A DNA stretch of 64,000 nucleotides from an uncultured Candidatus Saccharibacteria bacterium (GTDB lineage Bacteria > Patescibacteriota > Saccharimonadia > Saccharimonadales > 2-12-FULL-41-12), in assembly GCA_947085855.1 (NCBI GenBank), contig CAMTYB010000002.1:87278-151277 (forward strand), written 5' to 3'. Positions 44,021 to 57,745 of the stretch are shown piece by piece; position 1 is the first letter of the stretch, and the number at the start of each line of letters is the position of its first letter. The position numbers were made by a program, and so were the translations under genes. The notes beneath the pieces are model-generated. The model was given only the letters and a program-made list of their open reading frames with translations, was not told the origin of the DNA and ran no database searches.

Positions 44021-46174
44021 ATGCGTAAAGAATTAAAATCCCACCCGGTTCTTGCTGAGGCCTACGCTCTAGAAGAAGCTCGCGACACAATTAAAGGCTT
44101 CGACATTCTTCGATATGGCGTGCACGAAATTGGCCAGGAGCTGCCCGATGAGCCGGTGCACACCGAGTTAACACGAGCTGCGGACACTTTTCTTGTGGCT
44201 GATTATGATAGAGAGGCTCGACAACTAGACCCTATCGTAAAGAACCCTAATAGGGAGCATAAAATCGCTGAAGTGGCGGACGCATTTACTCATGTAATTG
44301 GTGTCGTTTCACACAAGGAAACAACACTCATGGGTAGGTATACCGGCTTTACAGTTGCCGTCAAGCAGGTTGAAAGAGGTTTACTCGCAGAGGAAATCGG
44401 TTCACTGAGGCAAGTCCTTGCTGGGCCTCATGAACGTAAGAAAGCCGAGATTGCACTTGAAGCCGAAAATGCTAAGGCAGTTACCGCAGAGATGAATCGT
44501 TTTCTAAAAGTTCTTGGGCGAATGCATGCGCCAGATGCAACATCTTCTTACATAATTAAAAGAGATGTTACGGCTATGACAAGATCGTCTCAAGCCGCAC
44601 AGCCAGACAAGGACGACAGACTTGGTATATATGACGGTGCAAGCTTTTCGCGTGCCGAAAAAAGACTCTTGCGACTTGTTGGGACGGAACATGATTTTGG
44701 TGAACGTAGCAAGCGGGTAGTCTTTGAGAGTGAGTTGATTGATCTGGTCGATCCAGAGCGCGCTAACTTCGATAGGCCGGCGGTGCAAGCAGAAATTCGG
44801 TTAATGAGCGACTCAATTATGAGTAAAATAGGGAGTCGAAAACTTACGGAATTAGAAGGCCATGGTGCGGCCACGAAAGTAGGGCTGCGTCGCGGCAAGA
44901 TTCACCCAATTAATAACCAGGGCCACCGCATCGATCATTTACCAGCCAAGACAGTCTACTGTTTAGTAGACGCAGCTGATATCAAAAAAGAGCGACTTAC
45001 TATTGATGGCCAGATGCATGAATGCACCTGGGAAAATACAGGCGGTTCTTCTGCTGCCAAAAATGAAAACGATACTCAATCTCGCGAACAACAGGCTTTG
45101 GACAGGCGAGGTCAGTCTATTGCCCTTGCTCAGTTTTGTCTCAAAACTCTCGAGATCAAGCTGGAGGACATAGCAGGGCACGAGGAAGACGAGGCTGTCA
45201 TTGCTAATATACGCGACGAGCAGACAAAAATAGCTGCCCTAGATGCGCACAGAGCTGCACGAGACGCATTTGCAGAAGAGATTTATGATCTGATGCAGGC
45301 GGCAGGTCTGGATAAAATCCGCCAGGAAATCCATGACATGAAAGTACCGGCAGACGAAAATCAATACCATCAAATCCTGGCACAACGAAATGCTGTCATG
45401 GAGCACGCGTTGCGTCTTGGTGAGTATGCACCATCAATAGCTGAGCGAATTGTTCAAAAAGCCAATGAGCTATGCGACATGCATCTTCCGGTTGACGGTA
45501 GCGGACAGCACTTGCACAACAAAGCCGAAGAACAGCTTGAACAGCTTAAAGAGCTTGAAGGTAGATTGTCATTAGATATGCCGGCAACGTGGTTATCGCT
45601 TAAACTGAAAGAATTAGCCCGAAGTGCAGCTCCCGAAGTTGTGAGCGGCACGACGTTAGAAGAATATAATCTTCAGCTTGAAGAAAAGCCTACGCTAGAT
45701 CCTGCCGATCTCATAAATGTAATGACTACACCTGCAGGCGCTGTACTGCCGCGAATCGGTGAGTATTTTGCCGCCTGTCAGGAGTACCCGATAACTGTTA
45801 AAAACTTGTCACAGGTGGTGTTTGGAAGTCTTCTTAATGTAGCGAAGAAAGACCGCACGCGCGTAGCCAATTACTTGTATCCTGCTGTCAAGTCACAGCA
45901 CAAACAATTGGTAGATTTGTTAATGGAAAAGGGCGTTGTTTTACAGAGGGGTTCAATAATTGATGACCCAGCGACTAATTCGCCCATGCACACACGAACA
46001 CTGAGAAGTTTTACTGTTGATGCGTTTGATCCTCAAAAGCACATTGGTTCACGTTACGTAGATGGCGTTCTGCATAATTGGGAACCGATACCTAACGAAC
46101 AAATTGAAGCAGTTCAAAACACGAAGAAACGGCATGATTCACAAGATGCCGGTGACGAACAAGTGAGTTCATGA
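44021..46174 (+). CDS. Orphan protein B (717 aa), cytoplasmic, helix-rich
   Basis: Uninterrupted ORF starting 16 nt after the previous stop. No TM helix, signal peptide, P-loop or nuclease motif recognised. Coiled-coil-like central region. Confidence 0.6.
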   Translation: MRKELKSHPVLAEAYALEEARDTIKGFDILRYGVHEIGQELPDEPVHTELTRAADTFLVADYDREARQLDPIVKNPNREHKIAEVADAFTHVIGVVSHKETTLMGRYTGFTVAVKQVERGLLAEEIGSLRQVLAGPHERKKAEIALEAENAKAVTAEMNRFLKVLGRMHAPDATSSYIIKRDVTAMTRSSQAAQPDKDDRLGIYDGASFSRAEKRLLRLVGTEHDFGERSKRVVFESELIDLVDPERANFDRPAVQAEIRLMSDSIMSKIGSRKLTELEGHGAATKVGLRRGKIHPINNQGHRIDHLPAKTVYCLVDAADIKKERLTIDGQMHECTWENTGGSSAAKNENDTQSREQQALDRRGQSIALAQFCLKTLEIKLEDIAGHEEDEAVIANIRDEQTKIAALDAHRAARDAFAEEIYDLMQAAGLDKIRQEIHDMKVPADENQYHQILAQRNAVMEHALRLGEYAPSIAERIVQKANELCDMHLPVDGSGQHLHNKAEEQLEQLKELEGRLSLDMPATWLSLKLKELARSAAPEVVSGTTLEEYNLQLEEKPTLDPADLINVMTTPAGAVLPRIGEYFAACQEYPITVKNLSQVVFGSLLNVAKKDRTRVANYLYPAVKSQHKQLVDLLMEKGVVLQRGSIIDDPATNSPMHTRTLRSFTVDAFDPQKHIGSRYVDGVLHNWEPIPNEQIEAVQNTKKRHDSQDAGDEQVSS

Positions 46175-51945: not shown

Positions 51946-53166
51946 ATGGAACTAGATGTAAAACAACTTGGCCTGATGATTAAAACCATTGCTGAAGAAA
52001 AAAACCTACCAGAAGACGCTGTGCAACAAGTTGTTGAACAGGCACTTGCTGCTGCGTATCGCAAAGACTTTGGTGATCGCGAACAAGAAGTTCGAGTCGC
52101 TATAAACCTGCACACCGGTGATATCGATGTCTTTGTTAGTAAAGAAGTGGTAGAAAAAGTTGGCGATGAACGCTTTGAGCTTAGCTTATCGCAAGCCCAA
52201 GCTATTAAGAAGAATGCCGAACTTGGTGATTTTATTGAAATTCAAGAAACTGCTGATAGCTTTGGTCGTGTTGCCGCTCAGACTGCCAAGCAAGTTATCT
52301 TGCAACGTTTGCGTGAGGCTGAACGTGAAATCATTATGACCGAATACCAAGATAAGATCGGTACCGTTGTAAATGGTATTGTGGCTCGCGTTGATGGACG
52401 TATGGTCCGGGTTGACCTCGGCAAGGCCCAAGCTATCATGCCTGGTAGCGAACAGATTCAGAACGAACGCTATCATGCCGGTCAGCGCCTTAAAGTTTAT
52501 TTGAAAGACCTCGAACGCGGTACTCGCGGTCCTCAGTTGGTGGTGTCCCGTGGTTCTACTGAATTCATGGAATGGCTCTTTCGTGGTGAGGTCCCTGAAA
52601 TGGAAAGTGGCGCTGTAGCCATTAAGGCTATTGCTCGAGAAGCTGGTGTGCGTAGTAAAATCGCTGTTACCAGCACCGTTCCAGGTGTTGACCCAGTCGG
52701 CACATTTGTCGGCGGTCACGGTACGCGCGTCAATGCTGTTATGAGTGAAATTGGCGAACAAGAGAAGATCGACATCATAGTATGGGATGACGACCAGGCT
52801 GCATTTATACAGAACGCCCTAAGCCCAACTAAAGTCACTTCGGTTAGTCTTGACCAAGAGAGCAAGAAAGCAGTCGTCCAAGTACCCGAAGACCAGCTCA
52901 GCATTGCAATTGGTAAGAGCGGCCAGAACGTCCGTTTGGCCAGCAAGCTGACAGGCTATGAAATTGATATCGTGTCTGACACGATGCCAGAAACTGAAAT
53001 TGCCCCGACTGCAGAAGTCGTGACTACTAAACCACTTGGTGGCCAGAAGTTGAAGCGCAAAGATCAGCTCGAAAGCAGCTTGCTAGAAGCCATCGAAGAA
53101 CATGGTGAAGAGACAACTGAAGCTGAATCTGGAGCGCAAGCTGAAAGCAAAGATACCAAGAAGTAG
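51946..53166 (+). CDS. nusA: Transcription termination/antitermination factor NusA
   Basis: N-terminal domain, S1 domain and two KH domains (IGKSGQNVRLAS), with an acidic C-terminal tail. Strong SD AAGGAGA. Confidence 0.95.
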   Translation: MELDVKQLGLMIKTIAEEKNLPEDAVQQVVEQALAAAYRKDFGDREQEVRVAINLHTGDIDVFVSKEVVEKVGDERFELSLSQAQAIKKNAELGDFIEIQETADSFGRVAAQTAKQVILQRLREAEREIIMTEYQDKIGTVVNGIVARVDGRMVRVDLGKAQAIMPGSEQIQNERYHAGQRLKVYLKDLERGTRGPQLVVSRGSTEFMEWLFRGEVPEMESGAVAIKAIAREAGVRSKIAVTSTVPGVDPVGTFVGGHGTRVNAVMSEIGEQEKIDIIVWDDDQAAFIQNALSPTKVTSVSLDQESKKAVVQVPEDQLSIAIGKSGQNVRLASKLTGYEIDIVSDTMPETEIAPTAEVVTTKPLGGQKLKRKDQLESSLLEAIEEHGEETTEAESGAQAESKDTKK

Positions 53167-53189
53167 TAATCTCTAACGAGCCTTATAGC

Positions 53190-53218
53190 TTGACAGCCAG
53201 ATTGACTACAGAGATAAT
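53190..53218 (+). promoter_or_regulatory. Promoter TTGACA-N17-GATAAT for the tail-fibre-like gene
   Basis: -35 at 53190-53195 and -10 at 53213-53218. The leader is A/C-rich, about 50 nt long, and has no obvious SD. Confidence 0.5.
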
Positions 53219-53277
53219 AGCTCTAGCACAAAGTAAAACCAAAACGTAACAAGTAACAAGGCCGAAACTGAACGAAC

Positions 53278-54402
53278 ATGGCGCGTTTACCTAATCCAGG
53301 CGGAGATGTGGGCAGTTGGGGAGGAATTCTCAATGATTTTCTGGCTCAAATTCACAACAGCGACGGCTCATTAAAAGATGGCGCTGTTACAAAAGCAAGT
53401 CTGAGCAGCAGCGTACAAGCCAGTCTAGACAATGCTGATGCTGCCGTTTCGGGCTCAGTACCTGATGCGTCGGCTAGCACCAAAGGTAAGGTGCAGCTTG
53501 CTGGCGATCTGACCGGAACAGCCGACAGCCCGACGATTGCCGATGGTGTGATTACGTCAGCAAAGCTGGCCGATAGCACGATTGTAAATACGGACATTTC
53601 TAGCAGTGCCGACATTGCTCAAGCCAAAATTCAAAACTTGACAACTGACCTGGCGAGCAAAGCAAATACGGCGGATGTATTTCTGAAGTCAGAAAACTTA
53701 TCTGGACTAACGAGTCCACTGACAGCTCGAACTAATTTAGAACTCGGTACTGCCGCTGTTGTTAATGTGCCAGGAAGCGGCAATGCAAGTGCTGCGCAAG
53801 TAGTAAAAGGTGATGATACGCGACTAAGTGATAGTCGTGCTCCGACTGACGCTTCAATAACACCCGCTAAACTAGCTGGCTCACCAACAGTTACTACAGG
53901 ACACGGTGTCACATGGAATGACACTGCGTGGGTAAGCACCGACCTAGTTACTCGAGCTGAATTTAATGCTCATGTAGATGATGCCTCAAGCGACTATCCG
54001 AGAGAGCTCGGTTACCTTGTAAAGCAGGACGGAAGCTTTAGCTCGACAACGACATTTGCATTTCCAACAACTGGCACAGATGTGCCGGGCACCACCCTTA
54101 CTGTTACTAAAGGTACGCGCCCAATTCTAATTCGAGTAAAAATTGGTCGCCTCGACAATCTAAATAATGACGGCACGTCGATCGTAACCTTACTTGAAGA
54201 TGACGCTGACGTCGACTTTTCGGTGATGGACATAGGTATTGCCGGCAAAGGGACGGGTGTAGTGCTTGAGTATCGTAGTACTGTAGCCGCTGGTGTGCAC
54301 ACCTACAAACTACGTCTATCGACGAGTTCTGGCCACACGGCTGTGCTTGCAGCCGATCTACTTTTGCCTGTCAGGATGTCAGTAATGGAAGTAGGCAGCT
54401 AA
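53278..54402 (+). CDS. Phage tail-fibre-like protein (374 aa)
   Basis: The N-terminus LPNPGGDVGSWGGILNDFL...HNSDGSLK, then TKGKVQLAGDLTGTADSPTI, TARTNLELGTAA and GDDTRLSDSR resemble recurrent motifs of phage tail-fibre/minor-tail proteins as I recall them. Ala/Ser/Thr/Gly-rich, with a beta-rich C-terminal domain and no signal peptide. Confidence 0.5.
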   Translation: MARLPNPGGDVGSWGGILNDFLAQIHNSDGSLKDGAVTKASLSSSVQASLDNADAAVSGSVPDASASTKGKVQLAGDLTGTADSPTIADGVITSAKLADSTIVNTDISSSADIAQAKIQNLTTDLASKANTADVFLKSENLSGLTSPLTARTNLELGTAAVVNVPGSGNASAAQVVKGDDTRLSDSRAPTDASITPAKLAGSPTVTTGHGVTWNDTAWVSTDLVTRAEFNAHVDDASSDYPRELGYLVKQDGSFSSTTTFAFPTTGTDVPGTTLTVTKGTRPILIRVKIGRLDNLNNDGTSIVTLLEDDADVDFSVMDIGIAGKGTGVVLEYRSTVAAGVHTYKLRLSTSSGHTAVLAADLLLPVRMSVMEVGS

Positions 54403-54406
54403 ACGT

Positions 54407-55138
54407 ATGGCAGGCATTTTTAGTAAATCAACCATCGATATTTCGAGCGGCCAATCTTTTGTCTACTTCACGCCCCTGTCATGGCATCCAACTGGTTCAA
54501 AGCCTGCTATTTTGTATGCTCATGGTCGCGGCGGTACGGCCCGCGACTTCTTCGATCCTTCAGTGTACGCTAAGCTCAAAGCGTTTACTGATGCTGGTTA
54601 TCCGCTTGTAGCCAACGATTTAGGCGGAACTACCAACTACGGTAATGATACGGCTATCACGCGTTTGGACCAGACTCGAACATTCGCCCAAGGTTCGCAG
54701 ATAGGCGCTAAGTCTGGCAAAGTTGTGTTATTCAGCGTCTCAATGGGCGGCCTCGCTGTTTGTAACTGGGCACGCCAAAATAAGTCTCTCGTATCGTGTA
54801 TTGTCATGACGGTTCCTGCTACCGAATTGGAGTACTATCATGATAACGACATCCTCGAAGGGGTTGATGCTGAAGCTGAAATTGATGCAGCCTACGGTGG
54901 CCATACAAATTATGTTAATTCCTTAGCAACCCACAGCCCTCTTAATTACGCTGCAGAGATCGCCGACTTACCTATCGCAATTTTTTATAATACAGATGAC
55001 AACATGGCTTCGCCAGCTCGCATTGAGGCTTTTGGGGCTGCAGTTGGGGCTAGTATGTTTCCCTCACTTGGCCTCCATACGCTCGATAATATAAATATGA
55101 CACAACTTATTTCTTTTATAGATACACATACTGCGTAG
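54407..55138 (+). CDS. Alpha/beta hydrolase (esterase/lipase-like), 243 aa
   Basis: Starts 4 nt after the previous stop. HGRGG oxyanion-type motif and nucleophile elbow VSMGGL (GxSxG variant). No signal peptide. Confidence 0.6.
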   Translation: MAGIFSKSTIDISSGQSFVYFTPLSWHPTGSKPAILYAHGRGGTARDFFDPSVYAKLKAFTDAGYPLVANDLGGTTNYGNDTAITRLDQTRTFAQGSQIGAKSGKVVLFSVSMGGLAVCNWARQNKSLVSCIVMTVPATELEYYHDNDILEGVDAEAEIDAAYGGHTNYVNSLATHSPLNYAAEIADLPIAIFYNTDDNMASPARIEAFGAAVGASMFPSLGLHTLDNINMTQLISFIDTHTA

Positions 55139-55148
55139 ATCAGGTTAA

Positions 55149-55175
55149 TTAGCACTCTTGACACGAGAGTGCTAA
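55149..55175. promoter_or_regulatory. CIRCE element (HrcA operator), perfect consensus
   Basis: TTAGCACTC (55149-55157) - N9 (ttgacacga) - GAGTGCTAA (55167-55175). The spacer contains TTGACA (55158-55163), a -35 box with TATCAT at 55180-85 (16-nt spacing). Confidence 0.9.
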
Positions 55176-55249: not shown

Positions 55250-57745
55250 ATGATGCCATCTTCGCCTGATTTTCAAGAATTTTTAAACCATCTAACAGAT
55301 AACGCGTTAGCAAGTTTGCGCAATGCAGACGCTATTGCTCGTGGTACTGGCAGTGCTTACGTTGGCACGGAGCATCTGCTGTTGGGCGTGTTAGCGCAAG
55401 ACACGTCAATGGGAGCAAAATTACTTGAAGGTGCCGGGGTAACACTCCAAAAGGCCAAGCTGGCATTAAATGTTAATTCAGGACCCGTCCAAGCACTCGG
55501 GGCTAAAGGTTTAAGTGAAGTCGCTAAGCTTACTTTGCGAATGGCATACGAAATTGCCCAAGACTTTAGCCAGGATTTCTGCGGTACCGAGCATATTCTC
55601 TATAGTATCTTGAGTCAAAAGAACGCTCGTGCCACCGAGTTGCTCAAGAACATGGATGTCGAAGTTGACACTCTTATGCAAGAGCTGGAAAACTTCCTCA
55701 ATCGACAGCAGTCAAGTGGTGGCGGCATAGCCGAAGCCCGCAAGCCAGGTGCTCGCAAGCCAAAGAAGACAGCGCTTGATTTCTTTGGCACTGATTTAAC
55801 GGCCCAGGCTCGTAAGAACAAGCTTGATCCGGTGGTTGGTCGGGAAAACCAAATTCGTCGCATGATTACTATTTTGAGCCGACGAACCAAAAACAACCCA
55901 GTTCTCATTGGCGAACCTGGCGTTGGCAAAACTGCTATTGTCGAAGGTTTGGCAGCTCGAATTGTGGCAGAGGACGTACCAGATAATCTGTTAGATAAGC
56001 GTATTGTTATGCTTGATTTAACGGCCATGATTGCTGGCACAAAGTATCGTGGCGAGTTTGAAGAGCGCCTTAAGAAGGTGATGGAAGAACTTGAAAATGA
56101 TAAATCTACCATTGTTTTTGTAGATGAGCTGCACTTAATTGTTGGTGCCGGTGCGGCCGAAGGCGCCCTGGATGCCGGTAATATGCTTAAACCAGCCTTA
56201 GCCCGAGGTAAAATTCAATTAATTGGCGCCACTACAACCGATGAGTATACCAAGCACGTCGAAAAGGATGCTGCCTTGGAGCGCCGTTTTCAGCCAGTTC
56301 AGGTTCCAGAGGCAACTGAAATTGAAACGTTGGCCATCCTCAAAGGTCTCAAAAAGCACTACGAATCATTCCACGGAGTCACCGTAAGTGAAGAGGTGTT
56401 AGAAGACACTGTCCGCTTTGCGAAACGCTATATTAATGATCGCTTTATGCCAGACAAGGCTATTGATTTGCTTGATGAAGCCTCTGCTCACGTTCGAGTC
56501 GACAAGGGCAAAACTCCACCCGAATTGCGGGAAGCTCAAAAGGAATTGCGTCTACTGCAGGTCCGTATTGAAGATGCGGCCGCCAACGAAGACTACGAAG
56601 CAGCCGCTCGTTTTAAGACCCAGGCTAGCCAATTGAGTCAGAAGATCACCGATTTGCAGGCTAAATATCATGCGGTCAAGAAGCTGACTCTAACGAGTGA
56701 TGATGTGGCGGCTGTAGTCGCTCGTATTACTGGCGTACCTGTACAGAAAGTCATCCGCACCGAAGCTAAGTACTTGTTGAATCTTGAAAAGACGCTGAGC
56801 AAACACATTATCGGCCAAAAAGAAGCAATCAGTGCCGTAGCTCGAGCTGTGCGACGTAATCGCAGCGGCATAAGTGATGATAAGCGACCAATTGGCTCAT
56901 TTATCTTCTTGGGCCCAACCGGAGTTGGTAAGACTGAGTTGGCTCGCGTTTTGGCCCGTGAATTCTTCGGCCGCGAAGATGCACTGGTTAAGATTGACAT
57001 GAGCGAATTTGGCGAACATCACAATGTATCTCGTTTGATGGGTGCACCGGCTGGTTACGTTGGCTATGATGACGGCGGTCAATTGACAGATAAAATTCGT
57101 CGTCAACCTTATAGCTTGGTCTTGTTTGACGAAATCGAAAAGGCCCACCCTGATGTTTTCAATATGTTGTTGCAGTTGCTCGAAGACGGTCGCCTGACTG
57201 ATAGTAAGGGTCGAGTTATTGACTTTAGTAACACGGTTGTCATTATGACGAGTAATATTGGCGCTGAAAAGCTACAGAAAGAGGCTCGCCTTGGCTTTAG
57301 TGTCACTACAGCAGCTGAGCAGAAGAATTTAGCAGATCTACATGAACGCAATAAGAGCGACGTGCTTGAATCGCTGCGAAAGATGATGCGACCCGAATTG
57401 CTTAACCGTATCGATAACAATATTGTTTTTCAGGCGCTTACCAAAGAGGAGATTATGCAAATTCTCGACTTACAACTCGCCGACCTCGAAAAACGTCTGA
57501 TTCGACACGGTATTGGTCTAAAAGTTCAAACTTCGGCCAAGAAATACCTGACTGAGCATGGGTATGACGTGAAGAATGGCGTTCGTCCATTACGTCGTCA
57601 GCTGCAGGAGACTCTTGAAGATCACATTTCCCAGGGTCTATTAGAGGGTACGTATCACAAAGGTAATGTGGTTACTGTGGCCGCCCGGAGTGGCAAACTT
57701 ATATACAGCAGCAGTTCAGAAGCAGCCGTTACTCATAAGAAATAG
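55250..57745 (+). CDS. clpC: ATP-dependent Clp protease ATP-binding subunit ClpC
   Basis: Two Clp_N repeats, AAA-1 GEPGVGKTA, a UVR-like linker (DYEAAARFK), AAA-2 GPTGVGKTE and the ClpB_D2-small domain. Confidence 0.93.

Follow-up and report, generated by a model that had tools for sequence, protein, structure and literature searches.

A probable phage-derived fibre and hydrolase gene cassette between nusA and clpC of an uncultured Saccharibacterium

The window analysed here is a 64,000-nucleotide stretch from an uncultured Candidatus Saccharibacteria bacterium (assembly GCA_947085855.1, contig CAMTYB010000002.1, positions 87,278 to 151,277), and we found that it carries, between nusA and clpC, a unit of two open reading frames (ORFs): ORF1, encoding a phage fibre-like protein, and ORF2, encoding an alpha/beta-hydrolase. 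Taken as a whole, the unit is probably a phage-derived accessory cassette with a putative promoter of its own, inserted between nusA and the CIRCE/clpC promoter. Its phage origin, its intactness and its relocation are the parts of this reading that we consider highly likely. The unit is laid out as follows.

~53167..55145, + strand: inserted cassette (promoter, leader and two genes), bounded by the nusA stop codon and the CIRCE/clpC promoter
53278..54402, + strand: ORF1, phage fibre-like protein, 374 amino acids (aa)
54407..55138, + strand: ORF2, carboxylesterase-like alpha/beta-hydrolase, 243 aa

The spacer between ORF1 and ORF2 is 4 nucleotides (nt; ACGT), and every coordinate that the initial annotation had given for a two-gene unit with such a gap between nusA and clpC was found in the sequence. 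The peptide motifs it had quoted are likewise all present: LPNPGGDVGSWGGILNDFL, TKGKVQLAGDLTGTADSPTI, TARTNLELGTAA and GDDTRLSDSR in ORF1, and VSMGGL in the hydrolase elbow.

We found that the backbone M1 peptidase-nusA-clpC-p323-radA is conserved in related Saccharimonadia loci and that nusA is followed by clpC without the pair in 35 of 35 related loci or species. Hence, the cassette is an insertion. In the empty-site relatives L009, L010, L011, L013 and L014, the CIRCE/clpC promoter lies 0-10 nt after the nusA stop codon. The NusA of the window is at most 85% identical to that of metagenome-assembled Saccharimonadia genomes. The flanks of the cassette in the window are:

51946..53166: nusA, left flank
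55149..55175: CIRCE-type inverted repeat, TTAGCACTC-N9-GAGTGCTAA, over the clpC promoter; the right-hand boundary, outside the cassette
55250..57745: clpC, right flank

The pair also occupies three further chromosomal sites, namely clpP-rpoB (second), DAGK-FAD oxidase (third) and GH5 cellulase-pgk (fourth, L097); this window does not contain the genes that flank the second and third sites. Between the sites, DNA similarity is confined to the interval from the ORF1 start codon to the ORF2 stop codon, and no direct or inverted repeats were found flanking the cassette. Its GC content is not unusual and gives no sign of recent transfer.

No phage genes lie within about 8 kb on either side of the pair in the window and its flanks, and in L003, a contig 99% identical to the window, we found housekeeping genes only for 8 kb on each side. 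The window contains no tRNA gene or integrase, and integrase, capsid and terminase genes, attachment sites and a tRNA target are absent from the window flanks and from the other three sites. The pair is therefore as isolated as first described, and no prophage is visible around it, either in the window or at the other three sites.

Both ORFs have full-length orthologues (45-99% identity for ORF1, 73-99% for ORF2), those of ORF1 forming 11 clusters. In both genes, non-synonymous differences amount to 0.06-0.26 per site and synonymous differences to 0.58-0.90, which is at or near saturation, so that mostly proportions of differing sites were used in place of dN/dS. Hence, both ORFs are real genes rather than chance reading frames, and both are under purifying selection.

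The pair could instead be the remnant of a decayed prophage, a leftover fibre and accessory gene without cellular function that serves at most as recombination material for infecting phages. Such a remnant would account for the phage derivation of all parts, for the retention of a phage N-terminal module and for the mobile-element-type genes a few kb away at the third site (an AAA_25 ATPase and a DnaG zinc ribbon). However, both ORFs are intact in 11 of 11 lineages despite saturated synonymous divergence, a putative promoter with a recurring -35 type accompanies the pair, and no other phage gene stands beside it at any site. Genomes of the Saccharibacteria group are strongly streamlined and should not keep a useless 2 kb. 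We consider a functionless remnant unlikely.

The allele exchange that we found at this locus fits traffic with a phage gene pool, as a remnant would also predict. Relative to L005, which carries the pair at the same site as the window, one stretch has been replaced by a divergent allele:

53378..54727, + strand: replaced stretch of 1.35 kb, running from near ORF1 codon 35 to near ORF2 codon 107

Within this stretch, nucleotide identity to L005 is 58-77%, compared with mostly 85-97% along the backbone and about 90% in the rest of ORF2. Residues 186-374 of ORF1 are 85% identical to the protein of L097, from the fourth site, and only 72% identical to that of L005. This trough of identity, together with the closest allele residing at L097, indicates that a divergent allele was swapped in, covering the fibre with its knob and the 5' part of the esterase gene. 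The window has a second divergence hot spot at 44021-46174 (+ strand, 717 aa), with 51-64% DNA identity to L005 where the two were compared (from 45278 on); its product has no Pfam or PHROG match.

The promoter of the cassette was assigned as follows.

53190..53218, + strand: putative sigma-70-like promoter, TTGACA-N17-GATAAT, matching 11 of 12 consensus positions

The initial annotation gave the pair a promoter of its own, and this claim holds in part. The TTGACA-N17-GATAAT motif is present, and a -35 of the GCTTGACA type stands upstream of the pair at three of the four chromosomal sites, being found with a suitably spaced -10 also in L002 (second site) and L097 (fourth site). Against this, the region holds 4 promoter-like sites where 4.7 are expected from shuffled sequences; hence, the motif by itself is not significant.

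Every module of ORF1 is phage-like, as judged by sequence matches and a predicted structure. The modules are:

53278..53376, + strand: N-terminal module, aa 1-33, MARLPxPGxDxGxWGxILNDFLxxxHNxDGSLK
53461..53877, + strand: repeat shaft, aa 62-200, comprising DUF5907 (aa 62-115), an NLSGLTS..TARTNLELGTAA repeat and a DDTRLSDSRAPTD motif
53983..54402, + strand: C-terminal TNF/C1q-like jelly-roll knob, aa 236-374, from AlphaFold2 and Foldseek

In the shaft, Pfam finds DUF5907 (PF19264) over aa 62-115 with 46 bits against a gathering cutoff of 27 (E 6.3e-12). PHROG matches to ORF1 are to minor tail and tail fibre families, namely phrog_2012, a minor tail protein (2.3e-8), phrog_8780 (1.5e-5) and phrog_35419 (2.6e-4), and the solved short tail fibre gp92 (9zd7) matches at 3.7e-5. 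Minor tail proteins in 11 Gordonia phage records are 42-52% identical over ORF1 aa 122-200. These matches and the knob fold bear out the earlier view of gene 1 as tail-fibre-like. The shaft varies in length; 270-aa orthologues of ORF1 have about 100 aa of it deleted.

The likeness to phage fibres is one of modules. ORF1 shares the shaft repeats and a DDTRLxxxRxPTD motif with gp31 of Gordonia phage ScarletRaider, a minor tail protein, and with PHROGs 2012, 8780 and 35419, but the identity to such Actinobacteria-phage proteins extends over about 78 aa, only some 20% of ORF1, and the heads differ. ScarletRaider gp31 adjoins lysin B and other tail genes; ORF1 itself is not in a tail gene module, which is the setting only of phage relatives of its single modules. 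We found no BppL_N or BppU domain in ORF1, DUF5907 being its sole Pfam hit at E <= 1, so that the likeness to BppU-type proteins raised by the initial annotation falls away; BppL_N (PF18338) occurs only in some longer ORF1 paralogues.

The AlphaFold2 model of the knob region is a beta-sandwich with a predicted local distance difference test score (pLDDT) of 63-89 per ten-residue block. Foldseek matched it in the PDB to the C-terminal domain of BclA, PLTL lectin, BC2L-C, Pgp3, C1q and phage knobs, with E from 2.7e-5 to 4e-4 and target-normalised template-modelling (TM) scores up to 0.71, and in BFVD gave 379 matches at E <= 1e-3, including a Microbacterium phage minor tail protein. An exhaustive search yielded 82 remote representative clusters for the knob, mostly short proteins with the knob at the end, and neither Pfam nor any annotated PHROG family covers the knob. 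One remote homologue, P0143 (294 aa), has two knob domains in tandem, indicating that the knob is a movable and duplicable unit.

BclA of Bacillus anthracis, PLTL of Photorhabdus and the N-terminal lectin of Burkholderia BC2L-C have the same jelly-roll fold as the knob (TM 0.54-0.71); the closest alignments have a root-mean-square deviation of 3.5-3.9 Å over about 140-150 columns, with 12-17% sequence identity. The ORF1 knob and BclA also share the position at the C-terminal tip of a fibrous protein, and the collagen-like stalk of the phage homologue L057_306 recalls the BclA layout. BclA is exported and ends up on the spore surface, but ORF1 lacks any export signal. Among orthologues, conservation of ORF1 is highest in the knob and in the N-terminal module. 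A hypervariable C-terminal domain, which had been put forward as a sign of receptor binding, was thus not found, although the knob does lie inside the stretch swapped between close relatives.

Of the 120 best homologues, which come from Saccharibacteria or Patescibacteria wherever the source names the organism, 111 have the N-terminal module (MARLPNPGGDVGSWGGILNDFLAQIHNSDGSLK in the window) starting at residue 1. The domains downstream of it vary (PTR, BppL_N, GDSL lipase, pectate lyase), and more than 100 Saccharibacterial proteins carry it with differing heads. No Pfam family matches the module. We also found it in 23 IMG/VR viral contigs (GC 34 to 70%), fused to pectate-lyase-like or collagen-like bodies, and in the viral contigs L077 and L084 the gene with the module is directly 3' of the tape-measure gene. 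In cultured phages it occurs in only 6 Streptomyces phage records among 50,697 records.

Further Saccharibacterial fibre-like genes with this module lie in L072 (10001-13005), L073 (10001-13904) and L006 (5821-7862, - strand). They are isolated units amid housekeeping genes, each with a different partner gene 3'; the partner proteins of 402, 387 (plus 319) or 410 aa have no similarity to one another and no Pfam or PHROG match. In Streptomyces phage BRock (L099 6791-8244) and phage Alone3 (L100 7001-8909), both of about 113-116 kb, the module gene sits within a tRNA gene array, at a distance from the tail genes. A small enzyme-like gene comes next, its annotation being enoyl-CoA hydratase-like in one phage and peptidase in the other, so that the arrangement is again a fibre-plus-partner pair.

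A strictly conserved N-terminal module implies a docking partner, and the pair might therefore serve a phage or mobile element, supplying an alternative fibre and esterase for particles of a Saccharibacterium phage or of a particle encoded elsewhere. The module indeed heads proteins encoded right after the tape-measure gene, missing export signals are normal for proteins assembled into phage particles, and the other module-bearing fibre genes of Saccharibacterial chromosomes are isolated two-gene units as well. However, neither the window nor any flank seen contains capsid, tail-tube, baseplate or lysis genes, and we know of no such particle in Saccharibacteria. We regard service to a particle as improbable.

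For ORF2, AlphaFold2 gave a confident model (pLDDT 93, predicted TM-score 0.92), for which Foldseek found 1826 PDB matches at E <= 1e-3, with TM of about 0.7 to feruloyl esterases, esterase D and YjfP. Both Pfam matches fall below threshold (Hydrolase_4, 25.7 bits against a cutoff of 27; Abhydrolase_1, 22.6 against 25.8), and ORF2 also matches phrog_789, esterase/lipase. By these comparisons, ORF2 is a divergent member of the alpha/beta-hydrolase family. Its predicted catalytic residues are:

54740..54742, + strand: Ser112 codon (TCA), predicted nucleophile in the S-V-S-M-G-G elbow, invariant in 19 homologues
54998..55000, + strand: Asp198 codon, predicted catalytic acid, nearly invariant in 19 sequences
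55076..55078, + strand: His224 codon, predicted catalytic base, nearly invariant in 19 sequences

ORF2 is thus an active-looking carboxylesterase with a Ser-Asp-His triad predicted from conservation. The fold, the triad and the annotation of its cultured-phage relatives as esterases corroborate the original comparison of gene 2 with phage-borne esterases. Kinship to LysB or cutinase, also suggested there, does not hold at the profile level: hhalign gave E 0.19 over 26 columns, with nothing beyond the nucleophile elbow, and the hydrolase profile had no match to the LysB of ScarletRaider. Mycobacteriophage lysin B (a mycolylarabinogalactan esterase) and the phage relatives of ORF2 are both serine esterases from Actinobacteria phages. 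Unlike ORF2, LysB is found in lysis cassettes and not beside knob genes.

We searched for the pair with a knob profile built from ORF1 and 80 remote representatives and a hydrolase profile from alignment A2, with E-values scaled to a nominal database size of one million sequences. A pair was defined as a knob gene directly upstream of a hydrolase gene on the same strand, overlapping or within 4 nt. We found it in the window, L001-L006 and L097, and in the phage loci L057-L060, L062, L065-L067 and L071; among the latter, the IMG/VR contigs L065, L066, L067 and L071 have the knob gene directly before the hydrolase. Matches in the other phage loci include:

L057/L058: knob E 3.7e-14 (collagen-like stalk plus knob), hydrolase E 2.3e-87
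L059/L060: knob E 3.4e-5, hydrolase E 8.4e-74
Gordonia phage YorkOnyx gp25/gp26: knob E 5.5e-8, hydrolase E 3.5e-46

In L068-L070 the knob match is weaker but covers the full domain length. Upstream of the esterase, L061_162 matched the knob profile at E 0.38, and gp33 of Arthrobacter phage Seahorse did not match it. When the 12-sequence alignment A1 was compared by hhalign with the phage proteins upstream of esterases, the matches were weak (L057_306, E 0.027; L061_162, E 0.32), and that to L059_363 (E 8.8e-5) lay on one motif; knob homology to phage proteins is clear only with the profile from 80 remote representatives. Distant homologues of ORF2, at 27-41% identity, are located in phage structural regions. 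Judged by these profiles and gene orders, knob plus hydrolase is an ancestral unit conserved in phage structural gene clusters.

A close counterpart is YorkOnyx (Kroosvirus), in which gp25, a hypothetical protein, and gp26, an esterase, have the same knob-then-hydrolase order on one strand as the window pair. The hydrolases of the window and the phage pairs share the Ser/Asp/His positions and an AAYGG motif. The differences are that pairs of the YorkOnyx type lie among head and tail genes whereas the window pair stands alone between housekeeping genes, that gp25 is a bare 159-aa knob protein to which ORF1 adds the N-terminal module and the repeat shaft, and that identity between the two pairs is only about 31%. 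A literature search on the Kroosvirus esterase found nothing.

The esterase occurs in cultured phages in 28 Gordonia and 2 Arthrobacter phage records, and the cultured-phage relatives of all three parts (N-terminal module, shaft and esterase) are only phages of Actinobacteria, which upholds the link to actinobacteriophages that had been drawn earlier. One phage-like contig, L071 (IMG/VR, 114.8 kb, GC 47.8%), is the only such pair-bearing contig with a GC content near the 47.4% of the window; it may belong to a phage that infects a low-GC host, or may be a bacterial genome fragment assigned wrongly.

Under our preferred reading, that of an inserted phage-derived accessory cassette, ORF1 would form a trimeric fibre with an N-terminal module, a variable-length repeat shaft and a knob head. 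The knob may bind a cell-envelope glycopolymer, or may dock the esterase directly, and the ORF2 esterase would strip acyl groups from the bound polymer, like receptor-modifying enzymes on phage particles. The cassette would be kept by purifying selection, relocated or re-acquired at four or more chromosomal sites, and its alleles exchanged between lineages. The benefit would be that the cell probably acts with the pair on an actinobacterial-type envelope, of a host or a competitor. For binding and deacylation as the mechanism, which is argued by analogy, we see the case as evenly balanced; that the cell uses the pair on the envelope of another cell is a tentative possibility.

The logic proposed here resembles that of tailspike esterases, where a surface glycan is deacylated by an enzyme that a fibre or spike brings to it. 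Such receptor-modifying esterases on phage particles have been reviewed (PMC5380687) and include the Moo19 and B2 tailspikes (PMC11654681). In the cassette, the enzyme is a separate alpha/beta-hydrolase protein.

Several observations weigh against the reading as a whole. By sequence, neither ORF1 nor ORF2 has a signal peptide, lipobox, membrane anchor or cell-wall sorting signal; hence, to act outside the cell they would need some other, perhaps non-classical, export route or lysis of the cell. In the ORF1 model, the fibre part is of low confidence, with a mean pLDDT of 57 for the whole AlphaFold2 monomer. Pattern scans with A1 found no ORF1 orthologue in 185,579 GTDB species-representative genomes, IMG/VR or JGI metagenomes, and Logan and ENA assemblies are the only known sources of the orthologue group; a pair this rare cannot belong to the core functions of symbiotic life. 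ORF2 is only 27-41% identical to the phage esterases, and the GC content is 55-74% in most phage loci, compared with 47-54% for the cassette, so that the transfer is an old one. Actinobacteria phages are heavily over-represented among sequenced phages, which weakens the all-Actinobacteria result for the cultured relatives.

The lack of a signal peptide had been noted at the outset, and it stands: hydrophobic stretches that resemble a signal peptide or could span a membrane are absent from both proteins, whose Kyte-Doolittle values over 19 residues peak at 1.42 (ORF1) and 1.27 (ORF2). This bears most directly on the narrower idea that the pair was domesticated as a surface adhesin with an envelope-modifying enzyme for recognising and attaching to an actinobacterial host. 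Speaking for that idea, all cultured-phage relatives of the three modules infect Actinobacteria, the knob fold is common to trimeric glycan-binding lectins, the fibre and knob region is a hot spot of allele exchange between near-identical backbones, as would be expected of an interaction surface, and the large set of Saccharibacterial proteins with the N-terminal module has differing heads, GDSL lipase and pectate lyase among them. A host prophage has also been reported to bind TM7x, in a report silent on this locus (PMC13578794), making physical contact between such phages and Saccharibacteria plausible.

Besides the missing export signals, the very narrow distribution of the pair and the lack of a host assigned to this environmental lineage count against domestication for host attachment. 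A paper on Saccharibacteria genetics gives type IV pili, a type IV secretion system and protein adhesins as adhesion factors, and a search of it for tail and fibre proteins found no fibre protein. Our literature search likewise found no mention of DUF5907, nor of Saccharibacteria together with minor tail proteins. We therefore find a dedicated host-recognition role rather doubtful, and retain the accessory cassette as our preferred reading. Tailspike esterases, to which its proposed chemistry was compared, are built into the spike as domains, unlike ORF2, and are mostly of the SGNH fold.

In L001 (1-1990), the third site has an AAA ATPase gene and a SAVED-domain gene some 6 kb upstream of the pair, possibly a defence pair like those of cyclic-oligonucleotide-based anti-phage signalling systems (CBASS), and nearby genes in L004 and L006 encode an AAA_25 ATPase and a DnaG zinc ribbon. 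This neighbourhood looks like a variable island. Proximity to the SAVED/AAA genes is what would speak for the knob and hydrolase pair being an anti-phage defence or decoy system. Since neither ORF1 nor ORF2 has a PADLOC match and the same pair is found in phage structural modules, we consider this very improbable.

The slot between the nusA stop codon and CIRCE holds different, unrelated accessory genes in L007, L008, L012, L015, L018, L020-L023, L029, L033, L041 and L043, among them a small protein with 'KMSGPDxDGCD' and lipoprotein-like proteins of 213-230 aa. From these gene contents, the nusA-clpC slot is a recurrent insertion point across species.

At the right-hand boundary, the CIRCE-type operator (55149-55175) overlaps the -35 box of the clpC promoter, and CIRCE is kept before clpC in the related Saccharimonadia L007, L009-L011 and L013-L015. 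The usual targets of CIRCE and its repressor HrcA are groEL and dnaK. Since CIRCE is the HrcA operator and is conserved before clpC, clpC appears, from sequence, to be a member of the HrcA regulon in related Saccharimonadia.

Phage receptor-binding genes resident in a bacterial chromosome are already a familiar kind of element. Three things are, in contrast to this, undescribed before: the knob-plus-hydrolase gene pair, widespread in phage structural modules; the TNF-like knob family without a Pfam entry; and the highly conserved N-terminal module common to many Saccharibacterial fibre-like proteins and phage tail proteins.

A broader scheme would have Saccharibacteria taking over receptor-binding parts of Actinobacteria phages as a modular host-recognition toolkit, in which the N-terminal module docks interchangeable heads onto a surface or secretion structure. 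We think this scheme a long shot. If it were true, the heads would include the TNF-like knob as well as pectate-lyase and GDSL esterase domains, with a partner gene next to each, and knob plus esterase would be one tool against an actinobacterial envelope polymer, swapped between strains to change host range.

Even if the cell makes no use of the pair, the locus documents gene flow between the phage gene pool and Saccharibacteria, and it is a case of a two-gene cassette found at several places in the chromosome even though no mobility genes can be recognised. In a streamlined genome the pair has stayed intact, and strains exchange it. Actinobacteria are the hosts of cultivated Saccharibacteria, and it is only in phages infecting Actinobacteria that the pair has cultured-phage relatives. 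How these ultrasmall bacteria choose and grip their hosts is little understood beyond type IV pili, and this locus offers testable candidates.

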